A stretch of 64,000 bases of DNA from a virus (taxonomy: Duplodnaviria; Caudoviricetes): the IMG/VR virus record IMGVR_UViG_3300031998_000017, positions 32,001 to 96,000 of that record; one strand, given 5' to 3'. Below the pieces are notes generated by a model, which saw nothing but the letters and a program-made list of their open reading frames with translations, ran no database searches and was not told the DNA's origin. The stretch's first letter is position 1. Every line of letters begins with the position of its first letter. The position numbers were made by a program, and so were the translations under genes. This document shows positions 489 to 63,999 of this stretch, in pieces.

Positions 489-3400
489 ATGGGGACTATA
501 AACACAAATATTAATGTCGGTTTTAACATAGATAAAAATGGATATAGCCAATTAATTAATAGCTTGCAAAAAGTAGAAAAACTTGCTAATAATACTACTA
601 ATAAAAATAGTATTTCAAAAGAATTCCAAGTTGCTAGTAAAGCCGCACAAGATTTAAAAAGTATTTTAAATAGCTCCTGAGACTCTAAATTAAATCAAAT
701 AAATTTAACTAAGTTAAATGCTGAATTGAAAAAGTCTAAAACAACAGCTGCTGAATTTTATAATAAGTTAGCTCAAGGTGGACAAGTTGGTGCACAGGGT
801 GCTGATGCATTTGCACGTTCTATTTTAAATGCTAATACTCAACTACGTCAATCAAACCAACTATTAGATAAAATGGCAGTTACTTTTAAAAATACTGTTA
901 GATATGGTATATCTTCTAGTATTTTTAATACTATGACTAATTCTATTCAAAAAGCGTATAATTATACTAAAAACTTAGATACAAGTTTAAATGATATTAG
1001 AATAGTTTCTAACCAAAGCGCTGAAGAGATGGAGAGATTTGCGGTTGCCGCAAATAAAGCTGCTCAAGCACTAGGTAAGACAACTCTTGACTATACAAAA
1101 GCAGCCACAATCTATTTCCAACAAGGTTTGTCTCAAGATGAAGTAGAAAGAAGAACTGAAATTACTTTAAAAGCTGCTAATGTAACTGGTCAAAATGCTC
1201 AAGACGTATCTGAACAATTAACAGCAGTATGAAATGGTTATCGTATTCAAGGAGAAGAACTTGAAAGATATGTAGATAGACTAAGTGCTGTTGCTAAAAA
1301 TAGCGCGTCAAATCTAGAAGAATTATCTACAGGTATGAGTAAAGTTGCATCTGCAGCAAAAGAAATGGGCGTTGATATTGACCAATTAACTGCGCAAATG
1401 TCTACTATTATATCAGTTACTAGACAAGCACCTGAGTCTGTTGGTACTGCTTTAAGAACTATTTATGCACGTATAGCAGATATAAAAGCTGGATTAGATG
1501 ACGAAACTTCTCTTGGTAATTATACTGGTAAAATGGCTAAACTTGGTATTAATGTTTTAGACGCTAGTGGTAATCTTAGAGAAATGGGAAAAGTTATTGA
1601 AGAAGTTGGTACTAAATGAGCTTCTATGACTGATGAACAAAGAATTAGTTTAGCTCAAACAATGGCAGGTACTCGTCAATACAATAACTTACTTACTTTA
1701 TTTAACAACTGAGATAAATATCAAAAAGCATTAGAGATATCTAAAAATTCAGCAGGAGAATTGCAAAAACAACAAGATATTTTCATGGAAAGTACCGAAG
1801 CTCATTTACAACAATTACAAGCAGAGGCTGAAAAAACATATAGTATATTGTTTGACCAAAAAACAATTAAAAGTTTTGCAGACTTATTAACTAAAGTTGT
1901 AAGTACATTTAATGGTTATATAAAAGGTATTGGCGGTGGCGGAAATGCTATCTTAAATATGGGTATGCAAATTGCTAATTTATATAATAAACAAATTGGT
2001 AGCGCTATCGTTCGTAATGTTGAAAATGTTAAATCATGAATTAGTGAAATTGTTAATGGTGGAAAACAAATTGAAAAATTAAAAGAAAGTATTAGAGATA
2101 GTAGAAAAGAACAATTAGAAAAACAAGCTAATATAGAAGAAAAACCTTACATGACTGATTTTGCTAAAGCTTATCAAGATAACACAAATGACCAGGCAGA
2201 GATAATTGAACAAGCTTGAAAAGTTAGAAAAGGTTTAACGAATGAACAATTCAAAGAAATTCAAAATGAAGCTGAATTAGTTACTCAACTAAAAGATGAA
2301 GTAGCTTTAAACGAAGCTTTAGTTCAATATGGTAAAGATACTTATGATATAGGTAATTCTGCTGAAGCTAAAGCAGCAGTAGACCAACAAGAAAAAGCAT
2401 TAAATACAAGTATTGAGCAAAAAAATAAATTAATACAACTTGAAACTCAATTAAATACATTATCAGATGATTCAAATCAAAAAGAAGAAGTCAAAACAGA
2501 GATAGAAAAAACACAAAAAGATATTTTAGAAAATATTAGATTGAATCAAGGTTTATTAGATGATGACCGTGTTCGTACAGCAGGTGAGCTAGAAGAAAAA
2601 CTACAACGGGAAGAATTAACTGAAGTTGACATTAAAGATTTAAAACAAATGCAAAACGAGTTAATTCAAGAACAAAATAATAATTTAAAAGAAACTAAAG
2701 ATATAGCAGAAGCTGTAAAACAAGAAGAAGAGGGCGTTACTCAACAAAAAAGAGACCAAGCAGAGTTAACCAAAAAGAGTGTTAAAGATAAAATTGGGGA
2801 CGCTAATACCAGAAGTAACACAGCGAGTGCTGTCCAAGTTCTTACTGCAACTGTTCAAGGGATAAGCGCCGTTACTGGAGCTTTACAAACTTTAGGTGAT
2901 GAAGGGTCTAGTGCAGCTGATAAAACAAATGCAGCTTTTGCAGGAATCTCTGGTGCGACAGCAGCAATCTTTAATGCAATTGCTCCTGGGTCTGGCTTTA
3001 TTGTAATGGGTCTTGCTCAGGTTGGAAAAGACCTTTTAAAAATTTCTGGCTTATGAGAAAAATGAGAAAATTCTTTTAAAACTAGCAATGAATTATTAGA
3101 AGAGTTAACTGAAAGTGCGAAAAAATTTACTGCCGCAATGAAAGAACAATCTAATAATGTTACAACTACAGAACAAAATATTAAAAATCTTGAAGAAATT
3201 AAAGATAGATTTGAATATTTACAAAATTTAGCAGAAAAAGGATTGTTACCAGATGATTTAAGAACTGAGTATGAATCTTATTTGACTAAGGTTCAAGATT
3301 ATAATGATAATATTATTATTAGTTATGATAAACAAGGCAAAATGATTACTAATAATAATAATGCTTTAGATGAAACAATAAAAAAATTAAAAGAACAAAA

Positions 3401-8819: not shown

Positions 8820-11800
8820 ATGAATAACAATTATGAGAATAAAATTCTTGATGCTATTCAAACTTTAGTAGATAACGCAGTTAGCAAAGCTGGTTATGAT
8901 AAAACTATTAAAGGTATTATTTCTAAATGTGTTAATGAAAGCACTGGGAAATATGTAGTTAGATATCAAGATAGCACTTTCTATGCTTATAGCAATGATT
9001 TAGACTCTGTATATAGTGGCGGAACTTCAGTATATGTTCTTATTCCTGGTAATGATATGTCACAAACTAAAACGATTCTTGGTTCTGTTGATAAACTAGG
9101 TACTGAATATATTAGTTTAACTGAATCAAATGCTGCTTATCAAGAAGTTGGTAATTCAATTGTCACTTCTAGAGGAGACCGTTTAGGAGTTAGTTCTTAT
9201 ACTCCAGGTGGAGATACTTTAGTTATTTATGACAAAGATAATTCTGCAGAAGATAATAAAGTTGATGTAGATATAGAAGGAGCTAATATATATTTTCAAA
9301 ATGCTAGTTATCTTGAAATTGGTGGCACATTTACCACTAAATTGAGTGATGAGCAAAAGAGAAAAGGTAATTATGGATTAGTTTTTGATATTGATTTCCG
9401 CGATGGTGCGGTGGATATAGATGAAGAAGAAATTGAAAATCATCTTATAAATAAAAAATTTGTTTTAGATATTAATTCTATGACAGGAAATCCATATTCA
9501 TATAATTTTGGAAGTGAACAAAATATTATATATGAAATTGATGGAGCTAATTTTTATAGATTAAATCGTATTACTCTTGAATGTAAAAATTTCCCTAAGA
9601 GTAGTACTCCACCTTGTATTAATGATATTTTTGTTGAAGATATAATTATGAAGGCTTTAACACCTTTAACAAGAGATGAAATTGCAAGTAATTCTTTAAC
9701 TTTTATAACTAAACAAGGTACTTATTTTAGTGATACAGATTTATCTAGTGCATCTAGATTAATTGAAACTGAAGTAAAAATTGATAAAAAAGTAGTACCA
9801 AGCACAAGTGATTTATTAAGATACTATTGGTTTAAACAAGATAGTACAATAGGTATTACAAGTATTGATTATTCACCTTTTGGCGGACCTGGATGGAGAA
9901 TTTTAAATGATTATAATGTTATTGATGAGACTAATAATATTAGAGATTATTTAACTGATGCAAATACTCTTACAGTGATAAAAGATTCACAAACTGAAAC
10001 TGAAGGGCGTGAACATCCTGAGTGGCATAACTTAGCAAAAGAGAATGAATATAAATGTGTAATTATATTTAATAATGAAATTCAAGTAGAAAGAAATATT
10101 ATTATATATAATCAAGCATCTCATTATACTATTTCTATTACATCTGACGAGGGTAACTATTTTAAATATAGCGAAGGTCGTCCAACATTAACTTGTACTG
10201 TTGACACTGATGTAACTCCAATGCCTACTTATAGTTATCAATGGAGTGTTACAGATAGTTCTAATAGAACTAGACCTTTAGCAGAAACAACTACTGAAAA
10301 CAATATTTATAATGGATATATAACAACAAGAGATACGTTATTAGAGAAAAAAGCAAGTGGCGTATGGACTGCTGAAGATGAGGCTAGTTTACTTGAAGCT
10401 GAAAGAAATATTGAAAATTATGATAAAAATGTCATGAGAATAGAAGGCAATAAAATCTATAACATAGAATTAGGTGAAATTGCTAATTTTAATAAGTATA
10501 CATGTTCTATATCATCAAGTGGAAATTTTTTAGGAAAATCAGATATTATAATTACAAATAGTTGGGACAAAGAAGATAACAGTTATTCTATGATTATGGA
10601 AAATGGCGACCAAATTTTCAAATATAATGAAAATGGTATTGCGCCAACAAACAAATCATTAGCCAAACCTATTGTTATAAAACCACTTCAATTTAGTGTT
10701 TATAATGAAAAAGGTCAACAAGTAGAAGATAATAAAATTGCGTCTACTGATGTTTCTTGGTATGTTCCTAAAGAAAACACAATGTTAAAAATTTCTGATA
10801 CTGGTATTGAACCAATAGAAGAAAAAGATTATTTAGTTTATACAGGAGTTAAAACTTTAAATTTTGAAATTGCTCCTTTATATAACAATAAAAAAATGAA
10901 TAACTCTATTAAATTAAAAGTTAAATATAATGATAGAGTTTTAATAGCTAACTCTGAATTAGAATTTATTAAAGAAGGAGAAATAGGGTCTAATGGAACT
11001 GATTTTGTATGTAGAATAGTTCCTAACGTAGCTGAAAATAGCCCAGTGCCTATGTATCCTACTTTTACAGCAGATATGAGTGTAAATCCTGTAACTGGAA
11101 ATATGAATTATACTAGACCTGTTGGAGAATTAGATAAATGATTTAAAATTCAATTATATAAAGATGGAGTGTTAATTTATGAAGGTGTTTCATCAGGAAC
11201 GTCTGATGAAGATAAAGCAGTTACTATTAATTGGTCAATGCTTACAAACAAATATTCAAGTACTATTTCTGATAGCACAAGCTTTAGTGTAAATTCAAGT
11301 ACTGGTGCTTTTTCTTATGTAGATTTAGATACTACTTTAGATAGAGCGGCAAATATTGTTAAAGCAACAGTTAGTTATAATAATATGACATATTATGCAA
11401 CTATGCCTATTATATTAGTTCAAGCAATTAACACAAATAGTATAAGTTATAATATTGATTTAGATAATAATACTGGTTTTAGATATGCAATATATACAAC
11501 AGATGGAATTAATCCAGCATATGATAGTAGCAACCCATTTGCGCTAAGAGTATATCAAACTGTTGGTGGAGTAAAGCAAGACATAAGTGTTGCCACAGGA
11601 ACTGCCACTGTTGATTATAATTGGTCTGTTTTAGGATGTGTTTATGATTCTACTTATGTATCACCTCGTCCTGGAGACCAAATGTATTGACCATCTTGTG
11701 GCAACTTGGTAGAAAAAGCACATACAAATGCAAATCCATTAGCGCATAATGAAAAAGATTATAAACCTATTGAAAAATTTGATGGGTTAAGTGTTAATAA

Positions 11801-31816: not shown

Positions 31817-34354
31817 ATGTCAATAGCAAATAGAATAGAACAAATAAAAGAGCATATTAATAATGCTTATAGCACTCTTGAGATAGGTGGAGCTAATATT
31901 AATTCTATTAATAAAAATATAGATAATATTAGCTCTTCTCTTGAAGAGAGATTAATATATTATATGAATAATGGATTAAGTGTAGTATGAAATAATTGAA
32001 ATAAAATAACTAGTAGTGGAGCTTTATTAGAATTACACAACACAATTAAAGCACCTATTTCTTTAACTTTAAAAGGAAATACTGTTCAAACTACTTTTAC
32101 TGGGAAAAATAAACTTAATTATGTTGATAATTTAAGAGCAAGTTATGGAGGACTAACAAGTGTAATAAATAGTGATGGTAGTATTACAACAACTGGATTA
32201 CCAAATGGAGACTATAGATGTATTTTAGAATATAATATAACTGATGATTTAGAAGACGGAGCTACATACACTTTTTGACAAGAAACTGCAAATGCTCATT
32301 TATTATATTTGCAAATAAATGCAAAAGATATAAGTACTTCTCAAATGGCTTATTACTCTTTAAATACAGGAGAGGCAAAGAAAACTTTAACAATAAATAA
32401 AAGTAAATATACTTATACTATGAATATTCAAACAGAAAGTGTATCTAGTTGAAATCAAACTTCTAAAACGTTAACCAATAAATATATGTTAGAAAAAGGT
32501 AGCGATAAAACATCTTTTGAGCCGTATTGTGGTGCAGAACCTAGTCCAAATCCATTATATCCGCAAGAGGTTCAAGTGGTAAAAGGTCATAACTCTACTA
32601 AGGTTAACGGAAAAAATTTATTTGATGGAATGTTTAGACAGGGTGGCTGATCTGGCCCTGCCACAACTAGAGTTATGTCTGTTAATGGAATTGTTACAGA
32701 TAATACATCAACACAATATACAATATCAACTAATTTAGATACAAGCACATATTGTTGAGGAGTAAGCGAAAGTAAACAAACTTTACCTAGAACTTCTTTT
32801 GATGAACTTTTTAATTCTGGTTGATTAACAACTTCTTCATATACTTTTACTTGTTCTAAGAATGGCTATCTTTATATTACTATTGCTGCGGCAAATAAAA
32901 CTGATGATGTCAGTATAAATGCGGTTAAAGATTTTAAGTTTCAAGTTGAAAGAGGTGGAATAGTAACAGAATATGAAGTTTATGATGGAAAAGTGTATCC
33001 AATAAGTTTTCCTGTTGAAAATAAATGATATATAGAACCTCAATCAGCAATTGGAGTTACATTATCTTATCAAGATGGTGTAACTATTTTAAATGGAACA
33101 ACCAATACTACTTGAGGAGCTTTGAGACAAGCTGTAAATTTAAGTGGAACCTATACTTTAAGTGTAGAAACTGATGCAATTAAAAATAATGTTTATGTAA
33201 GAATAAGAGATTCAAATGAAAATATTTTACAAACAGTATCAATTGCAAATAGTACTAAAGGTTTTGCAACAATAACAAGTAATGATATTGCTTATTTAGA
33301 AATTACTTTAGGAGCGCAAAATATAAATTTTGATAGACAGAAAATAAAAATTCAATTAGAGCAAGGAGACAAAGTTAATGATTTTACTCCTTATGGTGTT
33401 GAACCCATTGAGTTTTGTAAAATAGTTGATAACTCTGATGTTATTAAAAAAGGAACTGGAAAAAATAAAATAACCTTTCTTCCTCAGACAAAAACAATGA
33501 ATGGTTTAACTATGGTTGCTAATGAAGATGGTTCTTTAAGAGTGTATGGAACTGCTACTGCCACAGGTTCTACATATTTCACTTTAAAAGAAAATATTCT
33601 TTTAGGCAATAAAACATATTCATTTAGCGGAAAAGTAATGGGTACATTAAATGATAATTTATGTTCACTTAGGTTAGTAGATTCTGATGGCAATAGTTTT
33701 AAAAATGATTTTTTAACAATTAATAGTTCTATAGTTAGAAAATTAACTTCATCAGCAGAAAATGGTAGAAATTTTATTAAATGTTTATTCTATTATACAA
33801 ATGGTACTAAATGTGATTTCACAGTATATTATCAATTAGAAGAGAATTCTGTTGTTACTGAATGGGAACCAGGAAATTCTAAAGATAAGTGGTATATTGA
33901 AAAACAAATAGGTTATAGAGATATTTTGGGAACAGGAGATACTGCTGCTGCAGGACCTGTTTCAGAAGGTTTTTATTTAAATACAGGAGGAGTAAATTGA
34001 AATCATTCTCTTGCTTCTAAAGATGTATTTGTAAATAAATTTATTGCATATCCAACTTATAGTGCTTATAACGCACAATCAAATGCTATGGGTTATATAT
34101 ATACTTCAGTTAATCAATTATATATAAAAGTAAAAGGTATTTCAACATTAGAGGCTATGAATACTTTTTTAAGCAGTAATAATGTAAGAGTATATTATGT
34201 ATTGAATGCATATCGTTATATTATATTAAATGACACTCTTCAAAAACAATTAAATGATATTCAAGATATGAAAAGTTTTGATAATATAACAATTTTAACT
34301 CAAGATAATAATTATTTACCAATAGATTGAAATGTTGGTATTTTAACAAAATAG
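31817..34354 (+). CDS. Modular tail fibre/receptor-binding protein (845 aa, code 4)
   Basis: MSIANRIEQIKEHINNAY N-terminus followed by one copy of the same module. In-frame TGAs; ends at TAG 34352-34354. Confidence 0.8.
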
Positions 34355-48611: not shown

Positions 48612-48641
48612 AAAATAATTCCTCTTTTCACTTATATAAAT

Positions 48642-48670: not shown

Positions 48671-48672
48671 AA

Positions 48673-49092
48673 TTATAAAGGAATTCGATTATTTATAAAT
48701 TCTTTCTTGATTAAGCGTTTACCATTATCATAGGTATCATCAGCATGTTTTTCTTCAAAAGATAAAAGAAGTTCGCGGATACGTAACAAAGACTCTCTAG
48801 TTATTTTTTTGTTTACGTTTTCTAATACCATTTGGTCAGTAATTCATAAGAAAGTTTCTCTATCTACTTCTTGAATGCGGTGCAAATAATCATGGGCGGT
48901 ATTGCGCACAAGTATGGCGCCATTCCACCAGACATAACCATCTCCAATGCCTTCTTTTTGACTATCTTTTCTTGGTATTATCAAATGATGAAAACTTAAT
49001 TCTTTAGGATTTTTAAATGTATATCCCATAAAATCATAACCTAAAGCATCTAGGTTGTAAATTTGTATCATATCTTTTGTAAGTTCTTTCAT
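48673..49092 (-). CDS. Hypothetical protein with HNH-like His pattern (139 aa, code 4)
   Basis: LSFHHLIIP...NGAIL...AHDYLH; reads through TGA 48844 to TAA. Confidence 0.6.
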
Positions 49093-49093
49093 T

Positions 49094-50026: not shown

Positions 50027-50044
50027 ACCACGACCTCCTTATAG

Positions 50045-50076
50045 CAAAAAAAGGACTAAGTAAAAACTTAGTCCCC
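50045..50076 (-). terminator. Terminator-like hairpin
   Basis: GGACTAAG/CTTAGTCC stem with a T-tract on the minus strand. Confidence 0.65.
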
Positions 50077-50080
50077 TTTC

Positions 50081-50239
50081 CTATTTATTTCTAAACAATA
50101 ATCCTGTATATAATAAAGATGCTCCAAGCCATTGTAAAGATACAGGCCAATCACCTTTAGTAACTATATTAACTATTAAACTTCCACCTGCGCCTATTAC
50201 CATCATAGCGGGGAAAGCAACTTTTAAAAATTCTATCAT
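50081..50239 (-). CDS. Small two-TM membrane protein (52 aa)
   Basis: AGGAG RBS; MIEFLKVAFPAMMVIGAGGSL...LQWLGASLLYTGLLFRNK. Confidence 0.65.
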   Translation of the reverse strand: MIEFLKVAFPAMMVIGAGGSLIVNIVTKGDWPVSLQWLGASLLYTGLLFRNK

Positions 50240-50250
50240 TTTCTCTCCTA

Positions 50251-50727
50251 TTATCTTAAAATTCTAATACGTTGATTGCGGCTGCCGCGCCATTTCAAAG
50301 TTATGTCACGCTTGTCTTGCATATAAGGGCCATCAATTAAATAATTTATATTTTTTAATATATAAGTCATACTAGAATTAATTTTTAAATCTTTATATTC
50401 ATATCCAGTTCAAATTGCTATTTTAATATTTGGATACTTGTCTTTAACTTTATATATAAGTTGTTTTACAAATTCTATTTTTTCATCAGTATCAAGAGGT
50501 TCTCCTCCAAGAATACTTAAATTTCTTTGAATTCCATTATCTGCTATTGCGGAAATGATATATTCAATTAATTCATCTTCCACTCAAGCTTGACCTCCAT
50601 TTGGGTCTCATGCTTCTGGATTATGACATCCAGGACAGCGAAAATGACAACCTTGAAGGAATAAACTTACGCTTACTCCTTCACCATTAATGACGTCATT
50701 TTTATTCAAACCAGCAACCCTAATCAT
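50251..50727 (-). CDS. nrdG: Anaerobic ribonucleotide reductase activase (158 aa, code 4), missed by the ORF track
   Basis: GCHFRCPGCHNPEA*D radical-SAM motif, LSILGGEP, I*TGY, LIDGPY, WRGSRNQR. Confidence 0.93.
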
Positions 50728-52918: not shown

Positions 52919-52992
52919 ATAAGTTCCTCCTTAGTATTTAATTATTTCAAGGATTTAACCTTTATATCTATATGAAAAACAAAAGTAAATAA

Positions 52993-53532
52993 TTATTTAC
53001 TTCTGCTTAATTTTAAGTCTTGCAAATCTAATTCGCGTTCATTATCAAAAACTTTATATTCAAAAGGAATATCTTGAAAATCTTCCTCATCTGTCATATA
53101 ACGTCTACATATCTCTGCACAATCTGGATTTTCTTCTCTTTTAAGTGCGCGGATAAGTCTAGTTTTGTCTGTCGCTTGAACATATACAGGATGCACATCT
53201 AATCTATCATCTTTTAACATATTAACAATACCTGATATATTAAATACACCTACGTTAGTTTTATCTGGGTCTAATCCGTCAATAGGAGTACCATAAAACC
53301 AATTGCGGAAGATAGTTGTTTCCAACATATCTCCACTAATTGTTTTTCTAGTAAATTCATCTTCGGTTAAGAAGAAATAGTCTACTCCTTCTTCTTCATA
53401 ATCTCTTTTAGGGCGTGTTGTGCAACTAACCACTTTATGATAATTAGTGTTTTGGTCTAACATCATTTTTTGTAGTGTATCTTTACCAGCGGCGCTTTTA
53501 CCGAATAGTGCAATTATTTTTATTTTATTCAT
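52993..53532 (-). CDS. gmk: Guanylate kinase-like protein
   Basis: GKSAAGKDT, SCTTRPKRDYEEEGVDYFF, YGT. Confidence 0.88.
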   Translation of the reverse strand: MNKIKIIALFGKSAAGKDTLQKMMLDQNTNYHKVVSCTTRPKRDYEEEGVDYFFLTEDEFTRKTISGDMLETTIFRNWFYGTPIDGLDPDKTNVGVFNISGIVNMLKDDRLDVHPVYVQATDKTRLIRALKREENPDCAEICRRYMTDEEDFQDIPFEYKVFDNERELDLQDLKLSRSK

Positions 53533-56500
53533 CTGACATAACCCCCTCTCTATCGTGAGTAAGTTCTACATTTCCTTTCTCATCAATAGATGTTATCTTA
53601 TATAATTGATGGAAACCTGTATTCTTATAAGTTTTTGCTACAAATGTATCATCTCTGCGGAACCCCGCTACTAACAATTTGACACCTCTTGTAAACCAAC
53701 CTTTTTCAGTTACATGCTTTGTTCCATCTTCTCCCATTTCACTTAATTGTCTATTATACATTGTAAAATAATCTTTTGTAAATTTAACATTTACTACACC
53801 TGTTGGAGTTAATAATGTTACAGATGAACGTGTATCATTCTTACCTATAACTGTTCCAACTATTTTATGTATTCTATAAATCGGTAGTTCGTGTCCATTT
53901 CTTTTAAAATATGTGTCAACAATAGGTTCACTAGGAAGTGAATCAAAATCTATAACACCATACTTACTTTTATTAATATGCGCTAATTCATGCTCATGAT
54001 AATAGAAACATAATGCTTCCATTTCATACGCGCTAATGTTACCTAACGCATATTTATCCCAACATTCTTTAAATAACAAGTCATTAAAATCTCTCAATAT
54101 TTGACTTTGATTATCTCTAATCCAATCACGCGCACTATCCATTTGCGCCTGATAAATTTTTTCCCATCTGTCTTGTAAGATACAAGTTAATCCATTTATT
54201 ATTTCTAACTGGTCAGAGTCAAAATACTTATTATAAAATTCTTCACATTCGCTATCAAAGACATAATACTTTCCTGTCTTTTTATTTGCTTTTAAATACT
54301 TTGTGAACAAGAATGTTTTCTTTTGCAAATCTAATTCACTAGGAACTAAATTATGTTGTATTAAACCATTAAAGTTTTGTAAAGTTATTCTTTTCTTTGC
54401 TTCACACACTTTTGAGATATAATATGCCATAACCGCCATACGAGGTTCAATACCTAATTCTTTTCCTAAATCTATTTCTAACTTATCAAAAGCTCCTGCT
54501 TTAATCAAACTAAACATTGCGCTTTTGTTAAGTGGACATCTTGCCATAAAATCTTGTATACCGCTATATGGACGGTTCGCAATAATCTGGTCGATAATCG
54601 GACCTCCAACATTATTTAATGCTTTCATACCAAATAAGATTTCATTATTTTCTACATCTGGTTCAAAACTATATGATGATTTATTTATATCAACTAAACT
54701 AACTCTAATTCCTCTTGATATAATATCACCAATAGCTTTTGCTATTTTACCATAATCAGTTCCGCGCTCTTTCTTTTCTACATTTCCTTCTTCATCTTCT
54801 TCAAACTCATCACCATCTTCAAGACTACCACTATTAACTACTAAACACGCTGTGTTCCAATAGATAGGATTCCATCTTGTTGCAATATACATTGTTTGAA
54901 AACCGATGAAACTATATGCTAATGCGTGGATGATACTAAATGAATATCCCATCTGAGGACCGATACCACATGTCCATACATAATTGCCTAAACATGGAGA
55001 TTTAGCTTGATTTAATACCTTTTGACGAAGTTCAGGTATCTTACTCATTTGTTTCTTACCAACAACTTTACGTGCTGCGTTCGCTTCTGCTAATGTAAAT
55101 CCACATATATTCTCATCCATTAACATCTTCATTAATTGTTCCTGACTTGGCGGAACTCCATATGAAGTTTTAAAATATGGCTCTAATGTTTTTTGCTCCG
55201 CTTGAGTTAAACCATATTCGCGCATTTCTTTATACCACAATGAGATATCATTCTTAAATCTAATATATTTTTCCATTGGAGTTTCTTGACCTTTTTCTGC
55301 TGTCATTAATCTCATTAATCCATTTGCGTCTGCCATTTCTAACATTGACCCCGGCTTAATTTTCTTAGCCGCTTGTCCGCCAACATCACTATCAAACTGG
55401 AAGATATTTAATACACTATTCTCTTGAAGAACTTTCCATATATCTTCATCATCAATAGGCAATACACTTGGGTGAAAATACTTATCATAAATTTCTCTTA
55501 ATGTCAAGTCACTCTCAATTTCACCATAATCTTGCAACATTCTGATTGCTTCTGCTAATTTATCTTGAACTTCTGTTACTAAGAAATCATACTTTGTCAT
55601 ACCACATGCTTCACACATATGTAGGTCATATGATGTGATTACTTCACCTCTTGGAGTTCTCATAAATGTTCCAAATTCATATGGGTCTTCATCAAATAAG
55701 ATAACTCCTGAAGCATGTGAACTTCTTTTATTTATCAATCCTTCAATTCCGTCCATTATATCTAATAGACCAGGATATAAATTTACTTCATTTATAAATG
55801 TTTTAATTGGCTTACGACCTTTATCTTCATTCCCATTTATAACATCTGCAAGAGGCCATAAGAATCCACGTTCACTTGGGATAAGTGAACTTAAATATTG
55901 CGCTGTATCAACATCTATTCCATCTGGATACTCTTCACTACGATAACCGCGGCATGCAGTTAAGATTGTTGAACGAGTTCCTTCTGTTCCAAATGTTGCT
56001 ATTAATGTACATCCTAAATTCTTACGACTTAATTCATCTATATCACTCTTGAAGTTTTGTCCTCTTTCTTTTTTAATTTCATTTAATATCTTAGGACGCT
56101 TACTTGGACATAAATCTAAGTCAATATCACCTAATTCTACACGTTCTTTATTTAAATAACGCCAGAATGGAAGTTCCCATTTAATTGGGTCAAGCTGTGT
56201 AATACCTAATAGATAGTGATTCAAACCTGAACAACTTGAACCACGTCCTGCTCCTACGATACTTCCGCAATTCCAAAACAAATCAACATAGTGCTGTAAA
56301 GTTACTGGATATGCAAACATATTTGTTCCTAACTTACCACTAATTGTTCTTTTAATATCTGCCTCTTCCTCAAGTCTACTCAAATATGTTTCATTATACA
56401 AATCTTTTGTGATTAATTTATTAACACATTCATTAACCCAATATCTTTCAATTTTGTCATCAGACATATACATACTATTTAATATTGGATAATCTTTTAA

Positions 56501-57466
56501 CTGGTCTGTTTTACCATATTCTTTTACTTCAACTTGCGGAATAGTTTGCGCATGTGCTAAACTATACTTTTCTATTTTATTCCAAATTTCATAACTATTT
56601 TCAAACATTTGTTCAACGAACTCATTATCAAAACCAGATGCTGCCAAATGTTCTTTAATTTCATCATTTGTTTGAAGATATGCAAATTCATAGAACTCAT
56701 CTACTTCACGCTCTCCAAACTTACTGTTAAGATATGCTTTATGAACATATCTATCTTCTTTTTTAAGATAATGCGCATCTGACCCTATTACCATTTTCAA
56801 ATCAAATGCTTTTGCAATAGCAGGAAATCTTTTATTAACTAAAACTTGTTCTCTTGATGTTCCTGGTGCACATTCTATATAAAAGTTACCTTCTCCAAAC
56901 ACTTCTTTACCCCATAATAAGAAGTTTACTATATTATTATGTGCGATTGCCGCACCATTTGTATCCCCCGTTTGTTCTGCTGTAATAAGCGCCAATGTAT
57001 TAACACTCAACTCTCCTCCTAAACATGCTGTTGTTGCTATCAAACTGTTAGGATACTTTTTCATTATTTCTTCAATATCACTTTTTAATGTTGGGACTCT
57101 TTCAAGACCTCTATCCCAATAACTATTCATCCACGCTCTTGATGATAATTCTCTCAATACTCTATGACCTTCTTTATTTTTTGCAATCAAAATAAAGTGA
57201 TAATATCTTTGCCCCATATCACGCGTGTCTGTTAAATATATTTCATTTCCTAATGCTATTTTAAAATCAGGATTCTCTTTCTCTACTTCAGATTGATAAA
57301 AGTTTATCTCTGGATGAGAGGATACACATTCATGGTCAGTTATTGCGATACCTGATAACCCTAATTCAATAGCTCTGTTGATTAAATCTTTAGGTCTATT
57401 GATTGAGTCAAGCAAACGCAAATTACTATAATGTGTATGTGAGTGAACTTCAAATCTATTTCCCAT
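53525..57466 (-). CDS. dnaE: DNA polymerase III alpha subunit (family C, PHP domain)
   Basis: HSHTHYS, ITDHE, GAGRGS, DIDLD, SHASGV, KYDFL, C-terminal OB fold. AAGGAGG RBS before ATG 57466. Confidence 0.95.
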   Translation of the reverse strand: MGNRFEVHSHTHYSNLRLLDSINRPKDLINRAIELGLSGIAITDHECVSSHPEINFYQSEVEKENPDFKIALGNEIYLTDTRDMGQRYYHFILIAKNKEGHRVLRELSSRAWMNSYWDRGLERVPTLKSDIEEIMKKYPNSLIATTACLGGELSVNTLALITAEQTGDTNGAAIAHNNIVNFLLWGKEVFGEGNFYIECAPGTSREQVLVNKRFPAIAKAFDLKMVIGSDAHYLKKEDRYVHKAYLNSKFGEREVDEFYEFAYLQTNDEIKEHLAASGFDNEFVEQMFENSYEIWNKIEKYSLAHAQTIPQVEVKEYGKTDQLKDYPILNSMYMSDDKIERYWVNECVNKLITKDLYNETYLSRLEEEADIKRTISGKLGTNMFAYPVTLQHYVDLFWNCGSIVGAGRGSSCSGLNHYLLGITQLDPIKWELPFWRYLNKERVELGDIDLDLCPSKRPKILNEIKKERGQNFKSDIDELSRKNLGCTLIATFGTEGTRSTILTACRGYRSEEYPDGIDVDTAQYLSSLIPSERGFLWPLADVINGNEDKGRKPIKTFINEVNLYPGLLDIMDGIEGLINKRSSHASGVILFDEDPYEFGTFMRTPRGEVITSYDLHMCEACGMTKYDFLVTEVQDKLAEAIRMLQDYGEIESDLTLREIYDKYFHPSVLPIDDEDIWKVLQENSVLNIFQFDSDVGGQAAKKIKPGSMLEMADANGLMRLMTAEKGQETPMEKYIRFKNDISLWYKEMREYGLTQAEQKTLEPYFKTSYGVPPSQEQLMKMLMDENICGFTLAEANAARKVVGKKQMSKIPELRQKVLNQAKSPCLGNYVWTCGIGPQMGYSFSIIHALAYSFIGFQTMYIATRWNPIYWNTACLVVNSGSLEDGDEFEEDEEGNVEKKERGTDYGKIAKAIGDIISRGIRVSLVDINKSSYSFEPDVENNEILFGMKALNNVGGPIIDQIIANRPYSGIQDFMARCPLNKSAMFSLIKAGAFDKLEIDLGKELGIEPRMAVMAYYISKVCEAKKRITLQNFNGLIQHNLVPSELDLQKKTFLFTKYLKANKKTGKYYVFDSECEEFYNKYFDSDQLEIINGLTCILQDRWEKIYQAQMDSARDWIRDNQSQILRDFNDLLFKECWDKYALGNISAYEMEALCFYYHEHELAHINKSKYGVIDFDSLPSEPIVDTYFKRNGHELPIYRIHKIVGTVIGKNDTRSSVTLLTPTGVVNVKFTKDYFTMYNRQLSEMGEDGTKHVTEKGWFTRGVKLLVAGFRRDDTFVAKTYKNTGFHQLYKITSIDEKGNVELTHDREGVMSDE

Positions 57467-57495
57467 TTTTTCCTCCTTTTCCATCTTATAATAAT

Positions 57496-57524
57496 ATTAT
57501 ATCATTTTTTTAATTAAAAGTCAA
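57496..57524 (-). promoter_or_regulatory. SigmaA-type promoter for dnaE
   Basis: TTGACT-N17-TATAAT with extended -10 TG. Confidence 0.8.
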
Positions 57525-58029
57525 ATGGTAAGTGTTTGATGGAGGCTAAGTTATTTATTGGATAATCCAGCTCTTTACATTCCCATCCATGTTTAGTAAA
57601 ATATTCTTGCAAAGGAATACGTTCACTACACATATTACCAGGTGCTTCATATACTATTAAAACTAAAATTATTTCTTCTTCAATATTATTATCTTTTGCA
57701 TATTTATCGGCGAGATTGCGCATATCCGCAATCATCTCATCAAAATCTATTTTATCTAAATTCTTTCTATAATTACTTAAAAAAGAACAAATTGTAAAAT
57801 TTTTTTCTTGGCAAGGGCATGGGACAGGTTCTTGTTCTCCACATTTCTTACCAGCTTGAATAATAGGATTAATTCTTACACCATTTAGAATTTTTCTTGC
57901 ATTATAAAAAATATGATTCTCTCCTTGGTTTGCGTGAAACCAAGTTGGGTCCCACAACGCTGTGGATATGGGAATCATATTACGATTAAAATTTCTAATT
58001 TGATAAAAGTAACTAGTCCTTATTTTCAT
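57514..58029 (-). CDS. Hypothetical protein (weak DUF488-like pattern)
   Basis: IRTSYF...PISTA...LIVYE....CSER. Confidence 0.6.
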   Translation of the reverse strand: MKIRTSYFYQIRNFNRNMIPISTALWDPTWFHANQGENHIFYNARKILNGVRINPIIQAGKKCGEQEPVPCPCQEKNFTICSFLSNYRKNLDKIDFDEMIADMRNLADKYAKDNNIEEEIILVLIVYEAPGNMCSERIPLQEYFTKHGWECKELDYPINNLASIKHLPFDF

Positions 58030-58246
58030 TATTTTCTTCCTTTAGCATAGTCTTTAAACATCTAATTAAATCTTTAATTTCTTTTTTCTTTTCAAATTGC
58101 ACAACTGCAACTGCACCTTTTTTGCTAATAGGGATATTTATTGTTAAAGCTTCATCAACAATAAAATGATTACCAATTCTTTTTGCTTTACAAGGGGCTA
58201 CTAATTGCAATTCCGCAAGTTCTTGACAATTATTTATATTTCTCAT
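58013..58246 (-). CDS. Hypothetical protein
   Basis: Overlaps both neighbours in the operon. Confidence 0.6.
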   Translation of the reverse strand: MRNINNCQELAELQLVAPCKAKRIGNHFIVDEALTINIPISKKGAVAVVQFEKKKEIKDLIRCLKTMLKEENNENKD

Positions 58247-58518
58247 TATGCAGATTCTTCTGTTGTTCTATGCTTAGGATGGAAACCACCATTATTTTTA
58301 TAAAAGTTTTTGATAGCATTGAAAATAATTTGACTATCTAGTTGTTCTTGACTTTTGCTTCCATTTACTTTCCATCTAAAAGCAAATTTAGCTGGTCTTG
58401 TTCCAGGGTATAAATCAATAATTTTATATACTCCTAATTTACCTTTGGCATTTATTTCTTGATACCATATTGCCCATCTGTCATCTACTACTCTGTCAAT
58501 CTTATATAATTTACTCAT
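58246..58518 (-). CDS. Hypothetical protein
   Basis: GAGGAG RBS. Confidence 0.65.
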   Translation of the reverse strand: MSKLYKIDRVVDDRWAIWYQEINAKGKLGVYKIIDLYPGTRPAKFAFRWKVNGSKSQEQLDSQIIFNAIKNFYKNNGGFHPKHRTTEESA

Positions 58519-58530
58519 TCTATCTCTCCT

Positions 58531-59721
58531 CTATTTTCTTATTATTACCAATTTCTTTGCAGCTCTGGTACAAGCTGTATATAACCATCTCTTATGCTCT
58601 TCTAAAACATAAGGGAACCCCTCTTCTATAACCAAGACCTTATCCCATTCACTGCCTTGCGCTTTGTGGCAAGTGATAGCATATCCATAAGTAAACTGGT
58701 CAGGCACCATATTCATATAGCGCCAATTCCTACGCATCTTATATGTAGTCTTCCAATCTAATCCCGGCTCACCTGTTAAGATTAATTTCTTATCCATTTC
58801 TAATTCGCCATAGCTTTCACCTGTATCTGATATAAATTCCGCATGAATAATATCTAATTTCTTAGCTTTGCCATCGCTAGTTATTCTACCAGGTAGGTTA
58901 ATATAAGTACTGAAGCTATTGTTTAAATAACCAATAGTTCCATTAACTAATGGGTTATCATCGTTTGAAAAGACCTCCCAGTTATTCTTTAAACAAATAA
59001 CTTTGTCTCCATCTTCAGGGTCGCCTTCATGTCCTAACAAGTCACGCATTTGATTATTTAGTGCAACTCTTGTTGCATTAGTGGCGCATATTATTTGGTC
59101 AGCCCATTCTAACATTCCTGTTGATAATTCATCTTTATCTAATATCTGAACTTGTTGACCGATATAATGATTAAGTGGTTTTCCTTCACGAATATCCATT
59201 GTTAATTTAATAATCTCACTTTCCGCCTCTTGACGCATAATTTCATCTAGGAAGATATGCGGATTATCTAATAAATGGTTATCTTCACTTTTGTCAACTG
59301 GTGGCAACTGACCAGGGTCTCCTAAACATATAATATGCACAGGATAACTTGCTAATCGTTGCAATAAATCTTTTGGTACCATAGACACTTCATCTACTAT
59401 TACTACTTTATAAGGTACTATCTCCACAGGTTTACGAAAGAATGTCCCATCAGGACGAGGTATACTCTCAAACAAGAGTTTATGTAAAGTGCTTACATTT
59501 TTATTACCTTTCTTTTGTAAGACCTGTGTTGCTTTACCTGTGAACGATGTATATACCACATCTAATTCAGGGTCTATATCTGGGAGGGCCGATATGATAA
59601 ATTTAACTAGTGTTGATTTCCCTGTTCCTGCATATCCAGCTATGACTGTATATTTAGAACCATCGTTGTATCTATCAACAGCAATTTGCAAACCTTGCTT
59701 TTGCTTGTCGTTTAATTCCAT
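58531..59721 (-). CDS. SF1B RecD/Dda-like DNA helicase
   Basis: GYAGTGKS, IVDEVSMV, GDPGQLPPV, YAITCHKAQGSEW, LYTACTRA. Confidence 0.92.
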   Translation of the reverse strand: MELNDKQKQGLQIAVDRYNDGSKYTVIAGYAGTGKSTLVKFIISALPDIDPELDVVYTSFTGKATQVLQKKGNKNVSTLHKLLFESIPRPDGTFFRKPVEIVPYKVVIVDEVSMVPKDLLQRLASYPVHIICLGDPGQLPPVDKSEDNHLLDNPHIFLDEIMRQEAESEIIKLTMDIREGKPLNHYIGQQVQILDKDELSTGMLEWADQIICATNATRVALNNQMRDLLGHEGDPEDGDKVICLKNNWEVFSNDDNPLVNGTIGYLNNSFSTYINLPGRITSDGKAKKLDIIHAEFISDTGESYGELEMDKKLILTGEPGLDWKTTYKMRRNWRYMNMVPDQFTYGYAITCHKAQGSEWDKVLVIEEGFPYVLEEHKRWLYTACTRAAKKLVIIRK

Positions 59722-59741
59722 AACTCCTCCTTTATATTATA

Positions 59742-59770
59742 ATTATATCATATTTCTTTATAAAAATCAA
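59742..59770 (-). promoter_or_regulatory. SigmaA-type promoter
   Basis: TTGATT-N17-TATAAT with extended -10 TG. Confidence 0.75.
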
Positions 59771-61522
59771 TTAAAACAAATATTTACCTGAACCTACTAC
59801 TTCATAATCTTCTACAAATAATTGTGGAGTTCTTATTCCATTTCATTCATTTATATTACATTTTCCTACTGCGTTGATTGATATATAAGCCGTATCAAAT
59901 TCTTCAAATGTTTCACAATCTTTATCAGTAGCATTAAATATCATTAAACTTATTTTATTTTGTAATGTTATTTTTAATGTATTACTTGTTTTTCTATAAA
60001 CTGTTACCATATCTTTACTAACTTTTAAATTTTCTATTGCGATATATGGTTCATCCATATCTTTTCCCCATAAATCACTAAGACTAGCAATAGTAAGAAT
60101 ATCATTAGCTTGAACGTCTGCTCCTGTGTAGATATAGTCTACATAATATACTGGCTCTGCGGAAATGCTTGCTAATGCTGCGTCAGTCTTGGTTAAGAAC
60201 TCTTGAACCGCCTCTGCCGCCAAACACATACCAAATGCATTTTCATGTCCCTGGCACCATTCCGCCCCAGACTCTTCGCATATAGTCTTAAAATTAGTTA
60301 TACCAGTCATTTCATATCCGCGCGCACTGCCTTGATATCCCTCTGGAGTATCAAATAATATGCAACATGGACGTTGATATTTATTAGCTAACTTATTTGC
60401 TATAAGACCTGCTATATTTCTATCTATTGCTCCGCTATCAAGAGTAAACAATATAACTTTATGGTCAAGTAGATTGTCAGACTTCATCTGTCTTTCTAAA
60501 TCTTCCATAGCTTTATCTTGTTCTCTTGTCTGTCTATTCTTTACATTATTAGAAGTTCTAATTGCTTGGTCAACTATTCTTTCCATTTCACCAGGCGCAT
60601 GTCCGCGCTTAGTAGATGGAACCATTTTAAAAGCTTCATACTTAAGCATTGACTTAAATAGCAATTCTTTTTCTTCTATTGTTCCACTACGTTGAACTGC
60701 ATTAACTAGGGGAACTATATAAAAGGCTGCTCCTATTGAAGTAAGGTGCTCACCTAATTTAAACTTATTTTTTTGCCATGACTCATATAGATATGGGTTA
60801 TGAATATTTTCAGGTTCAAAACCTTTTGTTATAATATGTTTTGTTTCTATTGATGTTAGGCTCATCATATCTCCGCAGTTACCTAAAGCTACTAGGTCTA
60901 TATAATTATCTGCGTTGTTACCGCCTAATTGTTGGTCTAAGTATCTGCAAAATTGCCATACTATACCAACTCCTGAAAAATCTTTATTACTATAATCACT
61001 TAATTGATTATTTATAACTATTGCATATTCACTTACTTTATTAGCTAAGTGGTGGTCTAAGATAATAATATCTTTACCTTGACCTTTAAGTGTCAAATGC
61101 GCATCATAATCATTGGAACCAGCATCTGGAACTATAATTAATTCAAAATCTCTATAATTGATATAGTCCATACAATCATTAATTCCATGCTGTTTTCCTT
61201 CGTGCACCCATCACTTTAAGTTATTTTCAACCCAAGCAGGGAATAAATCATGAAGATAGTTAATTAATACTGCGGATGCGGTAAATCCATCGCAATCGCA
61301 ATCTACTATTACTAAAGCATTATCATTATTTTTAATGTGAGTAAGAAGCGTTCGAGCTGCTTTCACTAGACAATCTTGCCCAAGCGCCTCTGGTTTATTT
61401 ATATCTGCATCTGTTGTATTTAGATAATGCGCAACTTCTTCATAAGGGATATTTCTATTTGTTAATATTTGTTCTATTGTATTATATAATGGATTAATAG
61501 GTTTTATTAATTTGTATTGCAT
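59771..61522 (-). CDS. recJ: RecJ-like ssDNA exonuclease, DHH family (583 aa, code 4)
   Basis: DCDCDG, DAGSN, LDHH, GSARG, GHENAFG, C-terminal NE*NG..TPQ. Joins track ORFs through TGA at 61211 and 59843. Confidence 0.92.
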
Positions 61523-61534
61523 TATCTATTTCAC

Positions 61535-61741
61535 CTAATTCAAAATCATTGCAATTATTACAAAGATAATTAAGAATAATACGACTAATGCTGCTGGAAT
61601 CCAAAGTGGTGCTAATACCCATAGCCAACCCCAATTAATAACTCCACACAATTTTAATACTACAAATGCTATTGTTAACAATCCACAAAATCCTATTCCT
61701 CCGCTACGAACTACTGTTGTATTCTTATCATTATAATTCAT
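61535..61741 (-). CDS. Small two-TM membrane protein
   Basis: GGIGFCGLLTIAFVVLKLCGVINWGWLWVLAPLWIP. Confidence 0.75.
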   Translation of the reverse strand: MNYNDKNTTVVRSGGIGFCGLLTIAFVVLKLCGVINWGWLWVLAPLWIPAALVVLFLIIFVIIAMILN

Positions 61742-62832
61742 TATATTATTATTCTCCTTTCAAACAACTCTAAAAATGTATCTGGTCCTTTATCAATAGG
61801 ACTATCTTTATAGCCTAATAAATTCCATTTATCAAACATAAAGCTAATTTTAATTAAAGGACTATATTTCTTATTTATATCTTTTAATTTTTTTGTCCAA
61901 CCTTTAAATTCATTATCCCCTATTTCTTTAAATTGCTTATCAAAAGCAACAACAATTTCTTCTACATCTAGTGATTGTAGGAGCTGTACTTGATAGTTAG
62001 TTAAGTTACTTCCGCAAACTGCAACACTTATATCATTATCAAAACCAAAGTATGATTGATATAATAAGCAACTCTTTTCTCCTTCAAATACAATTACTTT
62101 TTTCATTCTTCTTATATTATGCTTACTATTATTCAAATTATATAAGTTGAAACCTAATGGGTGATTATACATTTGATAATTTAATATCGCAGGTTTATAC
62201 TTACCATTAGCTTCTTCTTCTTTTATCATTGTTCTTTCTCTGATACCAATTAACTTACCATCAATATTATAATGCGGGATTACTATACCCCAGTTAACTG
62301 GGTCAAAAGCAATACCACTATGATTCATTGATTCCTGTGTGATTCCTTCATCTAACCATGCTGGAATCTTAGGACGCGGTAAATATCTTAATATCTTATC
62401 ATCATAATATTTAAATTCTACAATTCTCTCTTCTTTTGTTTCTTGTTTCTTCTCATAATTATTTAATATTTTCCAATCGTCAGTTTCTGCGCTGCTATAT
62501 ACTTCATTATTAAAAGAAACATTTAATCCAAAGAAATTTATAATAAAATTAATTGATTGCATTAATGTATATTCAATATTTTTTAATTTTTTTACTTTTA
62601 TTATAAAGTCAAAAACATCAAAGGTATCTGAACACTCTGTATAACATCTAAATAACTTTGTGTTGTCATAATAATATAGCTTATGGCTACTTCCGCCATG
62701 ACACAAAGTCCTTGATATTATTAGCTCTCCTTTGATGACCGGGTCTCCGCCTAGGGCATATAACAATTCCTTTACTTGGTCTATTGTTAAACTATTTTTG
62801 ATGTTTTCTGACCACTCTTTAAGATTGTCCAT
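61741..62832 (-). CDS. DNA primase-like protein (Zn-binding plus TOPRIM)
   Basis: CH...CYTEC, IVIPH, VFEGEKS, VVAFD. GAGGTG RBS before ATG 62832. Confidence 0.82.
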   Translation of the reverse strand: MDNLKEWSENIKNSLTIDQVKELLYALGGDPVIKGELIISRTLCHGGSSHKLYYYDNTKLFRCYTECSDTFDVFDFIIKVKKLKNIEYTLMQSINFIINFFGLNVSFNNEVYSSAETDDWKILNNYEKKQETKEERIVEFKYYDDKILRYLPRPKIPAWLDEGITQESMNHSGIAFDPVNWGIVIPHYNIDGKLIGIRERTMIKEEEANGKYKPAILNYQMYNHPLGFNLYNLNNSKHNIRRMKKVIVFEGEKSCLLYQSYFGFDNDISVAVCGSNLTNYQVQLLQSLDVEEIVVAFDKQFKEIGDNEFKGWTKKLKDINKKYSPLIKISFMFDKWNLLGYKDSPIDKGPDTFLELFERRIII

Positions 62833-62860
62833 ATGAACACCTCTTTTCCTATATATAATA

Positions 62861-62889
62861 ATTATATAATAAATTATTAAAATAGTCAA
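62861..62889 (-). promoter_or_regulatory. SigmaA-type promoter
   Basis: TTGACT-N17-TATAAT. Confidence 0.75.
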
Positions 62890-63999
62890 TTAGAAAGCGG
62901 AAACCTGCATCTTTGGATTTACATTTATTTGTAAATCAGGTAAATCTATTAGCTGATAATTATAATCAGTAGCGAACATAGGTATTACTCTACATGTTCC
63001 TTGATTTGCCTTACATCATAATAATATATCTTTGTATTGTCCTCTACGATTTTTATATACTGAAATCTTTATTGCGGGCTCTTCAAATTTAAAGCGCGCT
63101 ATAACTTCTCTTAAGGCTTCTTTATCTTCTTTACTTGTCTTAAGCATAATCATACCTAAGTCAATTTTGTCGGCTATTGATTTAGCACCACGCAATAGGT
63201 TTTGGTCATATTGTTGAGCGGTAGTGTAATCAGCATTTAACTGTGTAGCAGTTAAGATAAACACACCATATTCATTACATAGGTCTTTAAGTTTAATAGA
63301 AATCATAAATAATACATTATCTTCTCTTAAACCTTTTATTCCTGTTTTCGATGTAACCTCACTCAATATCTTCATTGACGTATGTAAGTAATCGAAAAAG
63401 ATATATCGTACATCCCATTCATGTATACCAAATTTAATAGTGTTTTCGATGTCCTTCATAGAAAAGTCAGGAAGTTTCTTAATGTAGATTGGACATTTTT
63501 TCAATAACTCTGCTGCATATAGAACTCTTTCTAGCTCTCCTTCTTCATAGTTGTTATAAATTATATGGCTTTCGTTTACATCAGATAAGAACGCAAGCAT
63601 CATTGTTTGTATCTCATCTACTTCTTGCTCTGTTGTGATAAACATAGTAGGTTCTTTCGTTCCATTGTCTATCCATTTTCCTTGTTCTGAATCATATATT
63701 CTATCGCATGCAATAGAGCATGAATCAGCTATCATACTACGAGTTTTACCAACACCTGTAGCCGCAGAACGTAAATAGAATTTCTTTAAACGAGCTCCAC
63801 GCGTAACTGTGTTAATGTAAGGGCCATACATTGGGTAACCAATCTCAGGTCTTTTTTGTAAACTTTCGATAAGTTCGTTGACTTTATCTCCTGCTTGAAT
63901 GAAATCCTCATTAGAATCATCTACATATTTCATTCTTATTTCAGTTATTTTTTTATCTATTAAATCCGCAATAGCGTCAAGAGATGAATTATCTAACCA
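62890..63999 (-). CDS. DnaB-like replicative helicase, 5'-truncated by the window
   Basis: SAATGVGKT, FITTEQ, FFDYL, TATQLN, GAKSIADKID, YKNRRG. Reads through TGA 63016 to TAA 62890. Confidence 0.88.

Follow-up and report, generated by a model that had tools for sequence, protein, structure and literature searches.

Reading of TGA as tryptophan, uneven among gene classes, in a tailed phage whose tRNA(UCA) carries a second anticodon-like arm

The 64,000-nucleotide stretch analysed here (the window) comprises bases 32001-96000 of the IMG/VR record IMGVR_UViG_3300031998_000017, a linear record of 134,901 bp from a virus of the Caudoviricetes with an estimated completeness of 89%, and has a GC content of 30%. 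Its genes lie in two blocks (Table 1). A plus-strand block (489-42679) contains tape measure, tail, baseplate and fibre genes together with a lysis cassette, and is met head-on by a minus-strand block, which has RuvC and two glycosyltransferases at its distal end (42811-45670) and continues from 45695 to 63999 with genes of nucleotide metabolism and replication (NrdG, NrdD, DNA polymerase III alpha and RecJ). The GC skew flips sign where the two blocks converge. The present analysis concerns the codon TGA, which in the genes of this phage encodes tryptophan, and the tRNA(UCA), encoded elsewhere in the record, that would decode it.

When TGA is taken as a sense codon, the longest frames in the window reach 3539, 2820 and 2743 amino acids (aa), compared with 1323 aa under the standard bacterial code (translation table 11); making TAG a sense codon brings no gain in the longest frames of the window. 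Four gene frames, of 2737, 3533, 2809 and 845 aa, contain no internal TAA or TAG and require no frameshift, in agreement with a first-pass annotation of the window, which had described long genes interrupted only by TGA and proteins of 2700-3500 aa restored by recoding. Because a random frame at 30% GC meets TAA or TAG about every 16 codons (by arithmetic), chance cannot account for frames that run for 2700-3500 codons with TGA as their only interruption. The coding-density comparison suggested at the same time also came out in favour of recoding, with the cover of the whole record by greedily chosen open reading frames (ORFs) rising from 0.742 under table 11 to 0.893 under table 4 and the mean gene length from 176 to 264 aa. 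Counted over the genes that lie entirely within the window, in-frame TGA occurs 136 times and TGG 150 times; about half of the phage's tryptophans are spelled TGA. The genes for RuvC and NrdG and the gene at 37641-38078 hold three to five TGAs each, and table 11 would fragment all three.

The ends of genes and the surroundings of the TGAs were inspected as well. Under code 4 the 152 genes of the whole genome end in TAA (104) or TAG (48), as had been claimed, but the absence of TGA ends among these calls holds by construction once TGA is sense. Fourteen genes carry a TGA within 12 codons of their end, and the two that were examined (RuvC codon 167 and NrdD codon 730) correspond to Trp or TGG in relatives. 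In-frame TGA is followed by T in 17% of cases, in a base distribution like that after sense codons, compared with 61% after real TAA stops. A +4 base that would weaken release factor 2 (RF2) after TGA was looked for and none was found, and no in-frame restart, in the form of a Shine-Dalgarno sequence plus ATG, occurs downstream of the TGAs in the 3533-aa gene.

To leave the identity of the amino acid open, TGA was translated as X in searches, so that tryptophan was not presupposed. For RuvC, which retrieved 582 homologues, tryptophan stands at four of the five TGA columns in 105-120 of the 120 homologues listed. Since these database homologues might themselves be code-4 gene calls, the comparison was made at the level of codons in DNA, using 12 IMG/VR contigs with a RuvC homologue at 54-66% identity. 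At 232 aligned sites, the codons opposite this phage's TGAs are TGG (88), TGA (49) or codons for hydrophobic or other residues (95); a TGG or TGA codon is found at 137 of 232 sites and glycine at none. The sole in-frame stop codon in the relatives' aligned genes is TGA, facing either a TGA of this phage (50) or a Trp (18). The relatives are split: five of the 12 contigs carry 14-24 in-frame TGAs, and the other seven, each aligned over about 2,900-3,700 residues, are free of them and are taken as standard-code phages on that ground. Among these seven, Trp occupies 59 of the 104 codons aligned to this phage's TGAs.

Individual genes point the same way. In five relatives the tape-measure homologue occupies one frame of 2609-2913 aa; the two of these frames that contain no TGA have TGG at the tape-measure TGA sites 248, 377, 408 and 2125. 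Codon 730 of nrdD, three codons before its TAG, is TGG in two relatives (L121 and L122) and is accordingly a sense codon. The standard-code relative G005 (L130) ends nrdD at a true TGA stop; in recoded phages nrdD runs a few codons past the position of this stop, via a Trp codon (TGG or TGA), to TAG or TAA. These 3' ends appear to be a small snapshot of a TGA stop being replaced in the course of recoding. Distant standard-code proteins of solved structure concur at conserved sites: PflA has Trp at the position of NrdG X40, and RecJ (8y30) has Trp at X560, within INEWNG. E. coli RuvC has Tyr at X15, and the PDB alignments of RuvC and of the GT2 gene are too weak to inform on most TGA columns.

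The motifs quoted in the first-pass annotation were all recovered at in-frame TGAs, namely CHNPEAxD in NrdG, NINExNG in RecJ, STGxA and PSSxR in RuvC, and GGTx and YVxKRTA in the Gp10-like protein. Likewise, the paralogous pair GKYM-W-SR (14118) and GKYI-x-TR (14325) lies as described, and a third copy with W is present at 15072. Extended to the whole genome, this internal-paralogue test gave a weak Trp signal, with scattered residues opposite TGA (W at 3 of about 58), and was uninformative because the paralogues are too diverged. A search for related loci with the tape-measure N-terminus as query found nothing. By TGG alone, Trp makes up 0.61% of the tail block, 0.21% of RuvC and the glycosyltransferases and 1.02% of the replication block; once TGA is counted, these values become 1.43%, 1.68% and 1.12%, which puts the tail block within the range of the other blocks. 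Taken from these alignments, TGA reads as a tryptophan codon, synonymous with TGG, in this phage's genes.

Table 1. Genes of the window, with coordinates, in-frame TGA and TGG codons, and supporting matches.
Gene product	Position in window	Strand	In-frame TGA and TGG	Matches
Tape measure protein, 2737 aa	489..8702	+	19 TGA, 7 TGG	phrog_4211, E 1.4e-73
Giant tail protein, 3533 aa	8820..19421	+	35 TGA, 36 TGG	PHROG tail protein matches
Tail protein, 704 aa	19439..21553	+	7 TGA	phrog_372, E 9.8e-42 over residues 21-624; fn3 domain
Baseplate Gp10_C-like protein, 451 aa	21566..22921	+	5 TGA	Pfam PF21939 (Gp10_C), E 1.6e-11
Fibre-like protein, 2809 aa	23384..31813	+	18 TGA	One PHROG of unknown function
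845-aa protein	31817..34354	+	11 TGA, 2 TGG	Modules common to both giant genes
Endolysin, 341 aa	34735..35760	+	0 TGA	PHROG endolysin families; phrog_3513, E 6.6e-14
DUF7841 protein, 145 aa	37641..38078	+	3 TGA, 0 TGG	Pfam PF25223, E 2.3e-9, residues 42-139
Two tail-associated genes, 553 aa and 681 aa	38967..42679	+	4 TGA and 9 TGA	PHROG matches; both alignable to relatives in the codon test
RuvC-like resolvase, 168 aa	42811..43317	-	TGA at 5 of 5 Trp-equivalent codons	Pfam RuvC match under cut-off, E 6.7e-4
Two glycosyltransferases: GT1, 384 aa; NTP-transferase and GT2, 399 aa	43317..45670	-	4 TGA; 5 TGA	Pfam PF00534, PF00535
NrdG activase, 158 aa; NrdD anaerobic ribonucleotide reductase, 732 aa	50251..52918	-	3 TGA; one TGA (codon 730)	NrdD: PF13597, E 6e-150
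DNA polymerase III alpha-like protein, 1319 aa	53525..57484	-	0 TGA, 18 TGG	phrog_405, E 1.8e-207
RecJ-like exonuclease, 583 aa	59771..61522	-	2 TGA	Pfam DHH, DHHA1, RecJ_OB

Profile matches run across the TGAs of several genes. Those to tape-measure PHROG families span many TGA sites, with phrog_28 covering residues 51-1026, and the PF21939 match of the baseplate protein (residues 313-450) crosses TGAs at 339 and 447. The 3533-aa tail protein contains a repeated motif, GGSW..P.x..GKY[MI][W/x][ST]R. Its N-terminal part of about 1140 aa matches a separate frame of 1075-1212 aa, with five to seven TGAs, in three recoded relatives, which suggests that in this phage a tail protein has been joined in frame with fibre modules spanning about 2400 aa. 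These fibre modules recur in 23384-31813 and 31817-34354, and BLAST pairs the latter gene with both 8820-19421 and 23384-31813. The 2809-aa fibre gene has no match among the five relatives searched, and its continuity accordingly follows from the open frame alone.

The use of TGA differs sharply between gene classes. In the tail block TGA and TGG number 113 and 85, a TGA/(TGA+TGG) fraction of 0.57, and in the group of RuvC and the glycosyltransferases 14 and 2 (0.88); the head and packaging genes upstream of the window have 14 and 41 (0.25), and the replication block has 11 and 105 (0.09). The difference between tail and replication genes is highly significant (Fisher 2e-18). TGA-rich genes are thus those for tail, fibre, baseplate, glycosyltransferase and RuvC; the replication block almost lacks TGA, as do the capsid and packaging genes directly upstream of the window, where the portal, a terminase-like protein and other head-region genes contain none. 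The proposal that TGA is Trp across the region therefore stands as regards the amino acid, given the TGG of relatives and the Trp of solved structures, and falls as regards uniform use, given the counts in the replication block.

Two loci are described here for their own TGA content. In the lysis cassette (34379-36884), the endolysin and the adjoining 157-aa and 151-aa genes are TGA-free, and small flanking ORFs at 34379-34588 and 36266-36451 hold one TGA each; if recoding regulates lysis, its target would be small membrane or leader ORFs and not the enzyme. The late plus-strand block opens, 14.3 kb before the start of the window, with a gene (record positions 16404-17711) that has three to four in-frame TGAs and matches PHROG 5767 ('sigma factor', E 2e-47); Pfam finds no sigma domain in it. 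Were this gene to encode a late sigma factor, it could be translated, and late genes transcribed, only once the suppressor tRNA was available.

No tRNA was found in the window. The record carries, at 114-125.7 kb, a plus-strand array of 27 tRNAs and a tmRNA (84.8 bits), near which Pfam detects no translation-related genes, and a domain search of the record found no domain of the tryptophanyl-tRNA synthetase (TrpRS) family or of a release factor. A tRNA(UCA) of 96 nucleotides (nt) lies in the array at record positions 121092-121187, 25 kb beyond the window and 128 nt upstream of an ordinary tRNA-Trp(CCA). Its acceptor stem, AGGGGCU, has 7 bp, with A1-U72, G2-C71 and G3-C70, followed by discriminator G73 and an encoded CCA; its anticodon loop is CUUCAAA, and it scores 61.6 bits against the Rfam tRNA model. 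A1-U72, G2-C71, G3-C70 and G73 are acceptor identity features of bacterial tRNA-Trp, and by these features the tRNA(UCA) appears Trp-like. Between its anticodon and T arms lies a second hairpin, CGGGU-CUCCAAA-ACUCG, with a 5-bp stem. Infernal assigns the anticodon arm to the hairpin with UCA and treats the other one as 23 nt inserted into the variable region; the loop of this inserted hairpin, CUCCAAA, is a copy of the tRNA-Trp anticodon loop. No description of an extra anticodon-like arm on a suppressor tRNA was found in the literature searched.

The second arm recurs in other viruses. A scan of IMG/VR that constrained the UCA arm and the T loop only, leaving the second loop free, returned 111 tRNA(UCA) loci. 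In all 43 unique tRNA(UCA) with a long variable region and TCCA, this motif lies in a 7-nt hairpin loop (CUCCAAA in 17, GUCCAAA in 17, others in 9), and the 35 distinct stems of the extra arm are paired at 4.67 of 5 positions, compared with 2.81 for shuffled partners. Of the 27 unique matches that have a long variable region but no TCCA, the majority resemble tRNA-Sec in their acceptor ends and a few are probably not tRNAs at all. The three classes of tRNA(UCA) loci could not be told apart by the ORF coverage of their surroundings. Within the set used for the codon test, the two-arm tRNA is present in four of the six recoded phages (this one and three of its five recoded relatives) and in none of the seven relatives with the standard code, which include one of 100% completeness (hypergeometric p = 0.02, by arithmetic).

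Several further observations concern this tRNA and its array. A scan of bacterial genomes for the two-arm tRNA returned mostly genuine tRNA-Sec, together with five Trp-like copies (L131, L145, L147, L148 and L160) on short contigs of metagenome-assembled genomes (MAGs) binned as Coriobacteriia, Oscillospiraceae, Treponema and Bacilli. These MAG contigs are probably phage contigs, and the two-arm type would then extend beyond this phage group; as a basis for assigning a host, the MAG copies are too weak. In the recoded relative G006 (C1:99216-99918; L179 317-1019, minus strand), the two-arm tRNA(UCA) gene is split within the anticodon loop (..GGTCTT / CAAAACC..) by an insert of about 606 bp that encodes a 153-aa PD-(D/E)XK endonuclease (PF11645, E 2.4e-17). 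The insert sits at the classic 34/35 position and is probably a group I intron carrying a homing endonuclease; no Rfam group I intron model matched it. If it is an intron, the suppressor tRNA would need splicing in that phage. Also beyond the window, record positions 125565-125957 match the Rfam OLE RNA (RF01071) at 85 bits (cut-off 50) and overlap a tRNA-Tyr call. The match squeezes the whole 616-position model into 393 nt and may be spurious; OLE would be unusual in a phage.

Very probably, then, the phage uses a two-stage genetic code, in which TGA means Trp, the host keeps the standard code and a suppressor tRNA enables the TGA-laden late genes. The host would be a standard-code bacterium, probably of the Bacillota: the DNA polymerase has its nearest cultured relatives, with 39% identity, among Bacillus phages of the SPbeta type and Enterococcus phages, and Bacillus and Enterococcus use the standard code. 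Early in infection only TGA-free genes would be translated in full. As the suppressor tRNA accumulates, charged by the host TrpRS, tRNA(UCA) would outcompete RF2 at UGA and the TGA-laden late genes would be made. With 19-35 TGAs per giant gene, suppression would have to be very efficient, and a further effect of TGA may be to limit how much of the low-copy virion parts is made. Reliance on the host synthetase is suggested by the lack of a TrpRS gene in the record. A host that reads TGA as stop is suggested by the avoidance of TGA in early genes, since an AT-rich code-4 organism would be expected to prefer TGA everywhere; this avoidance is the main argument, an indirect one, for a standard-code host.

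A more tentative proposal, close to evenly balanced, concerns the extra arm. Bacterial TrpRS uses the anticodon as an identity element, and the extra arm may supply CCA to TrpRS because the true anticodon of this tRNA no longer does. The arm, with its loop N-U-C-C-A-A-N on a covarying 5-bp stem, might thus act as a decoy anticodon arm that hands CCA identity to the host TrpRS while UCA reads UGA.

Several points weigh against these two proposals. The host and its genetic code are inferred only, the timing of expression is deduced from gene function only, and the role of the extra arm in charging is a hypothesis drawn from sequence. The early set is not strictly code-neutral, as 8 of the 35 replication-block genes hold one to three TGAs, and the endolysin, having no TGA, does not bear out the published proposal of lysis enzymes gated by recoding. 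Two recoded relatives lack the two-arm tRNA in their records, which are 74% and 35% complete. Additionally, many genuine bacterial tRNA-Sec genes show UCCAA in the variable loop when searched for it.

The uneven use of TGA might also reflect dosage rather than timing. With TGA read as Trp, each UGA would lose ribosomes to RF2, so that high-copy or essential proteins avoid it, and the low-copy tape measure, fibres and baseplate tolerate TGA or exploit it for attenuation. The portal, terminase-like and other head-region genes, TGA-free though late, are consistent with this idea, as are the TGA-free endolysin and the finding that the largest, lowest-copy virion proteins are the richest in TGA. 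RuvC and the glycosyltransferases are TGA-rich yet are not virion parts, and a 5% loss per site over 35 TGAs would leave less than 20% full-length product (by arithmetic); with 35 TGAs in one gene, suppression is presumably near complete and attenuation per site small. Dosage is possible but rather unlikely, whether as a rival of the timing switch or as its complement.

A host that itself uses code 4, for example a Mycoplasmatota-like bacterium whose code the phage shares without any switch in infection, would fit the low GC content of 30%, the reading of TGA as Trp throughout and a phage genome with neither a release factor nor a TrpRS gene. In such a host, TGA should dominate everywhere, yet the DNA polymerase and the replication block as a whole use almost exclusively TGG. 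Moreover, the phage brings its own tRNA(UCA), sister phages at 54-58% RuvC identity contain no in-frame TGA, one of them stops nrdD at TGA, and the nearest cultured relatives by polymerase infect standard-code hosts. A code-4 host is therefore improbable.

The readings of TGA as Gly (code 25, as in Absconditabacteria, Gracilibacteria and their phages), Cys or selenocysteine, and that of broken genes, are excluded by the codon alignments to relatives, and each is left with a negligible probability. Code-25 phages do exist, and ARAGORN labels the tRNA(UCA) 'tRNA-SeC' owing to its length. Yet Gly faces none of the 232 TGA sites of the codon test and only 4 of 75 in the tape measure, every one of them variable, and the sole UCA tRNA of the record is Trp-like; Cys stands opposite TGA at one of the 232 sites in the 12 relatives. 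As for selenocysteine, the acceptor stem of the tRNA(UCA), at 7 bp, is not extended, A1-U72 and G73 are of the Trp type, the molecule fits the ordinary tRNA model save for the insertion in its variable region, and 136 TGA sites in the window are far above any selenoprotein usage. That the TGAs are real stops, in a decayed or mis-assembled phage or between many short genes sharing one frame by chance, has nothing in its favour beyond the table-11 reading, and it is contradicted by frames interrupted 136 times by TGA and never by TAA or TAG, by profile matches that cross TGAs, by TGA sites that recur in independent metagenome contigs in alternation with TGG, by the single tape-measure frame of standard-code relatives and by the lack of in-frame restart signals after TGAs.

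As the first-pass annotation noted, recoding of stop codons in gut phages has been published, and TGA-to-Trp recoding is known from several gut-phage clades (Borges et al., bioRxiv 10.1101/2021.08.26.457843). The 'Agate' phages described there, of about 127 kb, come from cattle, pig and tortoise, have predicted Firmicutes hosts and have standard-code relatives at more than 90% average nucleotide identity (ANI); TGA suppressor tRNAs were detected in only 35% of code-4 phage genomes (bioRxiv 10.1101/2021.08.26.457843). The present phage shares with Agate the reading of TGA as Trp, a genome above 100 kb, low GC, Firmicutes-like affinities, a pile-up of TGA in structural genes and not in the replication machinery, a phage-encoded TGA suppressor tRNA, close standard-code relatives and a GC-skew flip where two gene blocks converge. 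It differs in its TGA-free endolysin and in the extra anticodon-like arm, which is absent from the account of Agate in that paper. It resembles the Agate type in size, code and gene pattern and is a candidate member of that clade. A related tRNA-bearing contig stems from metagenome 3300033463, which appears in a paper on rumen datasets.

Other systems offer partial parallels. The code-change operon of the Jade phages encodes TrpRS, tRNA(UCA) and release factor 1 (RF1) (bioRxiv 10.1101/2021.08.26.457843); as there, UGA would be read as Trp here by a phage tRNA(UCA) with G73, but the present record has neither TrpRS nor RF1, and its tRNA has an extra arm with a CCA loop. For the phage TrpRS:tRNA(UCA) pairs AP1 and HF2, Trp at UGA was demonstrated by mass spectrometry (bioRxiv 10.1101/2025.10.30.685624). 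NCBI code 4 of Mycoplasma and Spiroplasma likewise combines TGA as Trp, a tRNA-Trp(UCA) and an AT-rich genome; there recoding is genome-wide and TGA is the major Trp codon, whereas here it is specific to gene classes and the decoder comes from a virus. The crAss-like and Lak phages of code 15 (TAG to Gln; PMC9523058; PMC7886860) also reassign a stop in late genes by means of a phage suppressor tRNA in a standard-code host, but differ in codon, amino acid and host phylum. The proteomic proof found in the literature searched concerns this TAG-to-Gln case, and none was found there for TGA to Trp in the present phage group.

The phage therefore adds a clear new case to a type of recoding known from gut and rumen phages, and the part with real novelty is the decoder tRNA outside the window. 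For annotation, the correct code is needed for about a quarter of the window, since table 11 would fragment the tape measure, the fibres, RuvC, NrdG and both glycosyltransferases. More broadly, this well-documented case, in which TGA-to-Trp recoding is specific to gene classes and sister phages of either code are available, is useful material for studying how a standard-code cell comes to have its code changed by a virus. Because the phage has neither a synthetase nor a release factor, whatever lets the host charge and use the tRNA(UCA) is likely to be the actual mechanism of the code change. If the decoy reading of the extra arm is true, the charging problem of a recoded phage that lacks a synthetase would be solved by the tRNA itself, and recoding in this phage group would hinge on the acquisition of this one gene.

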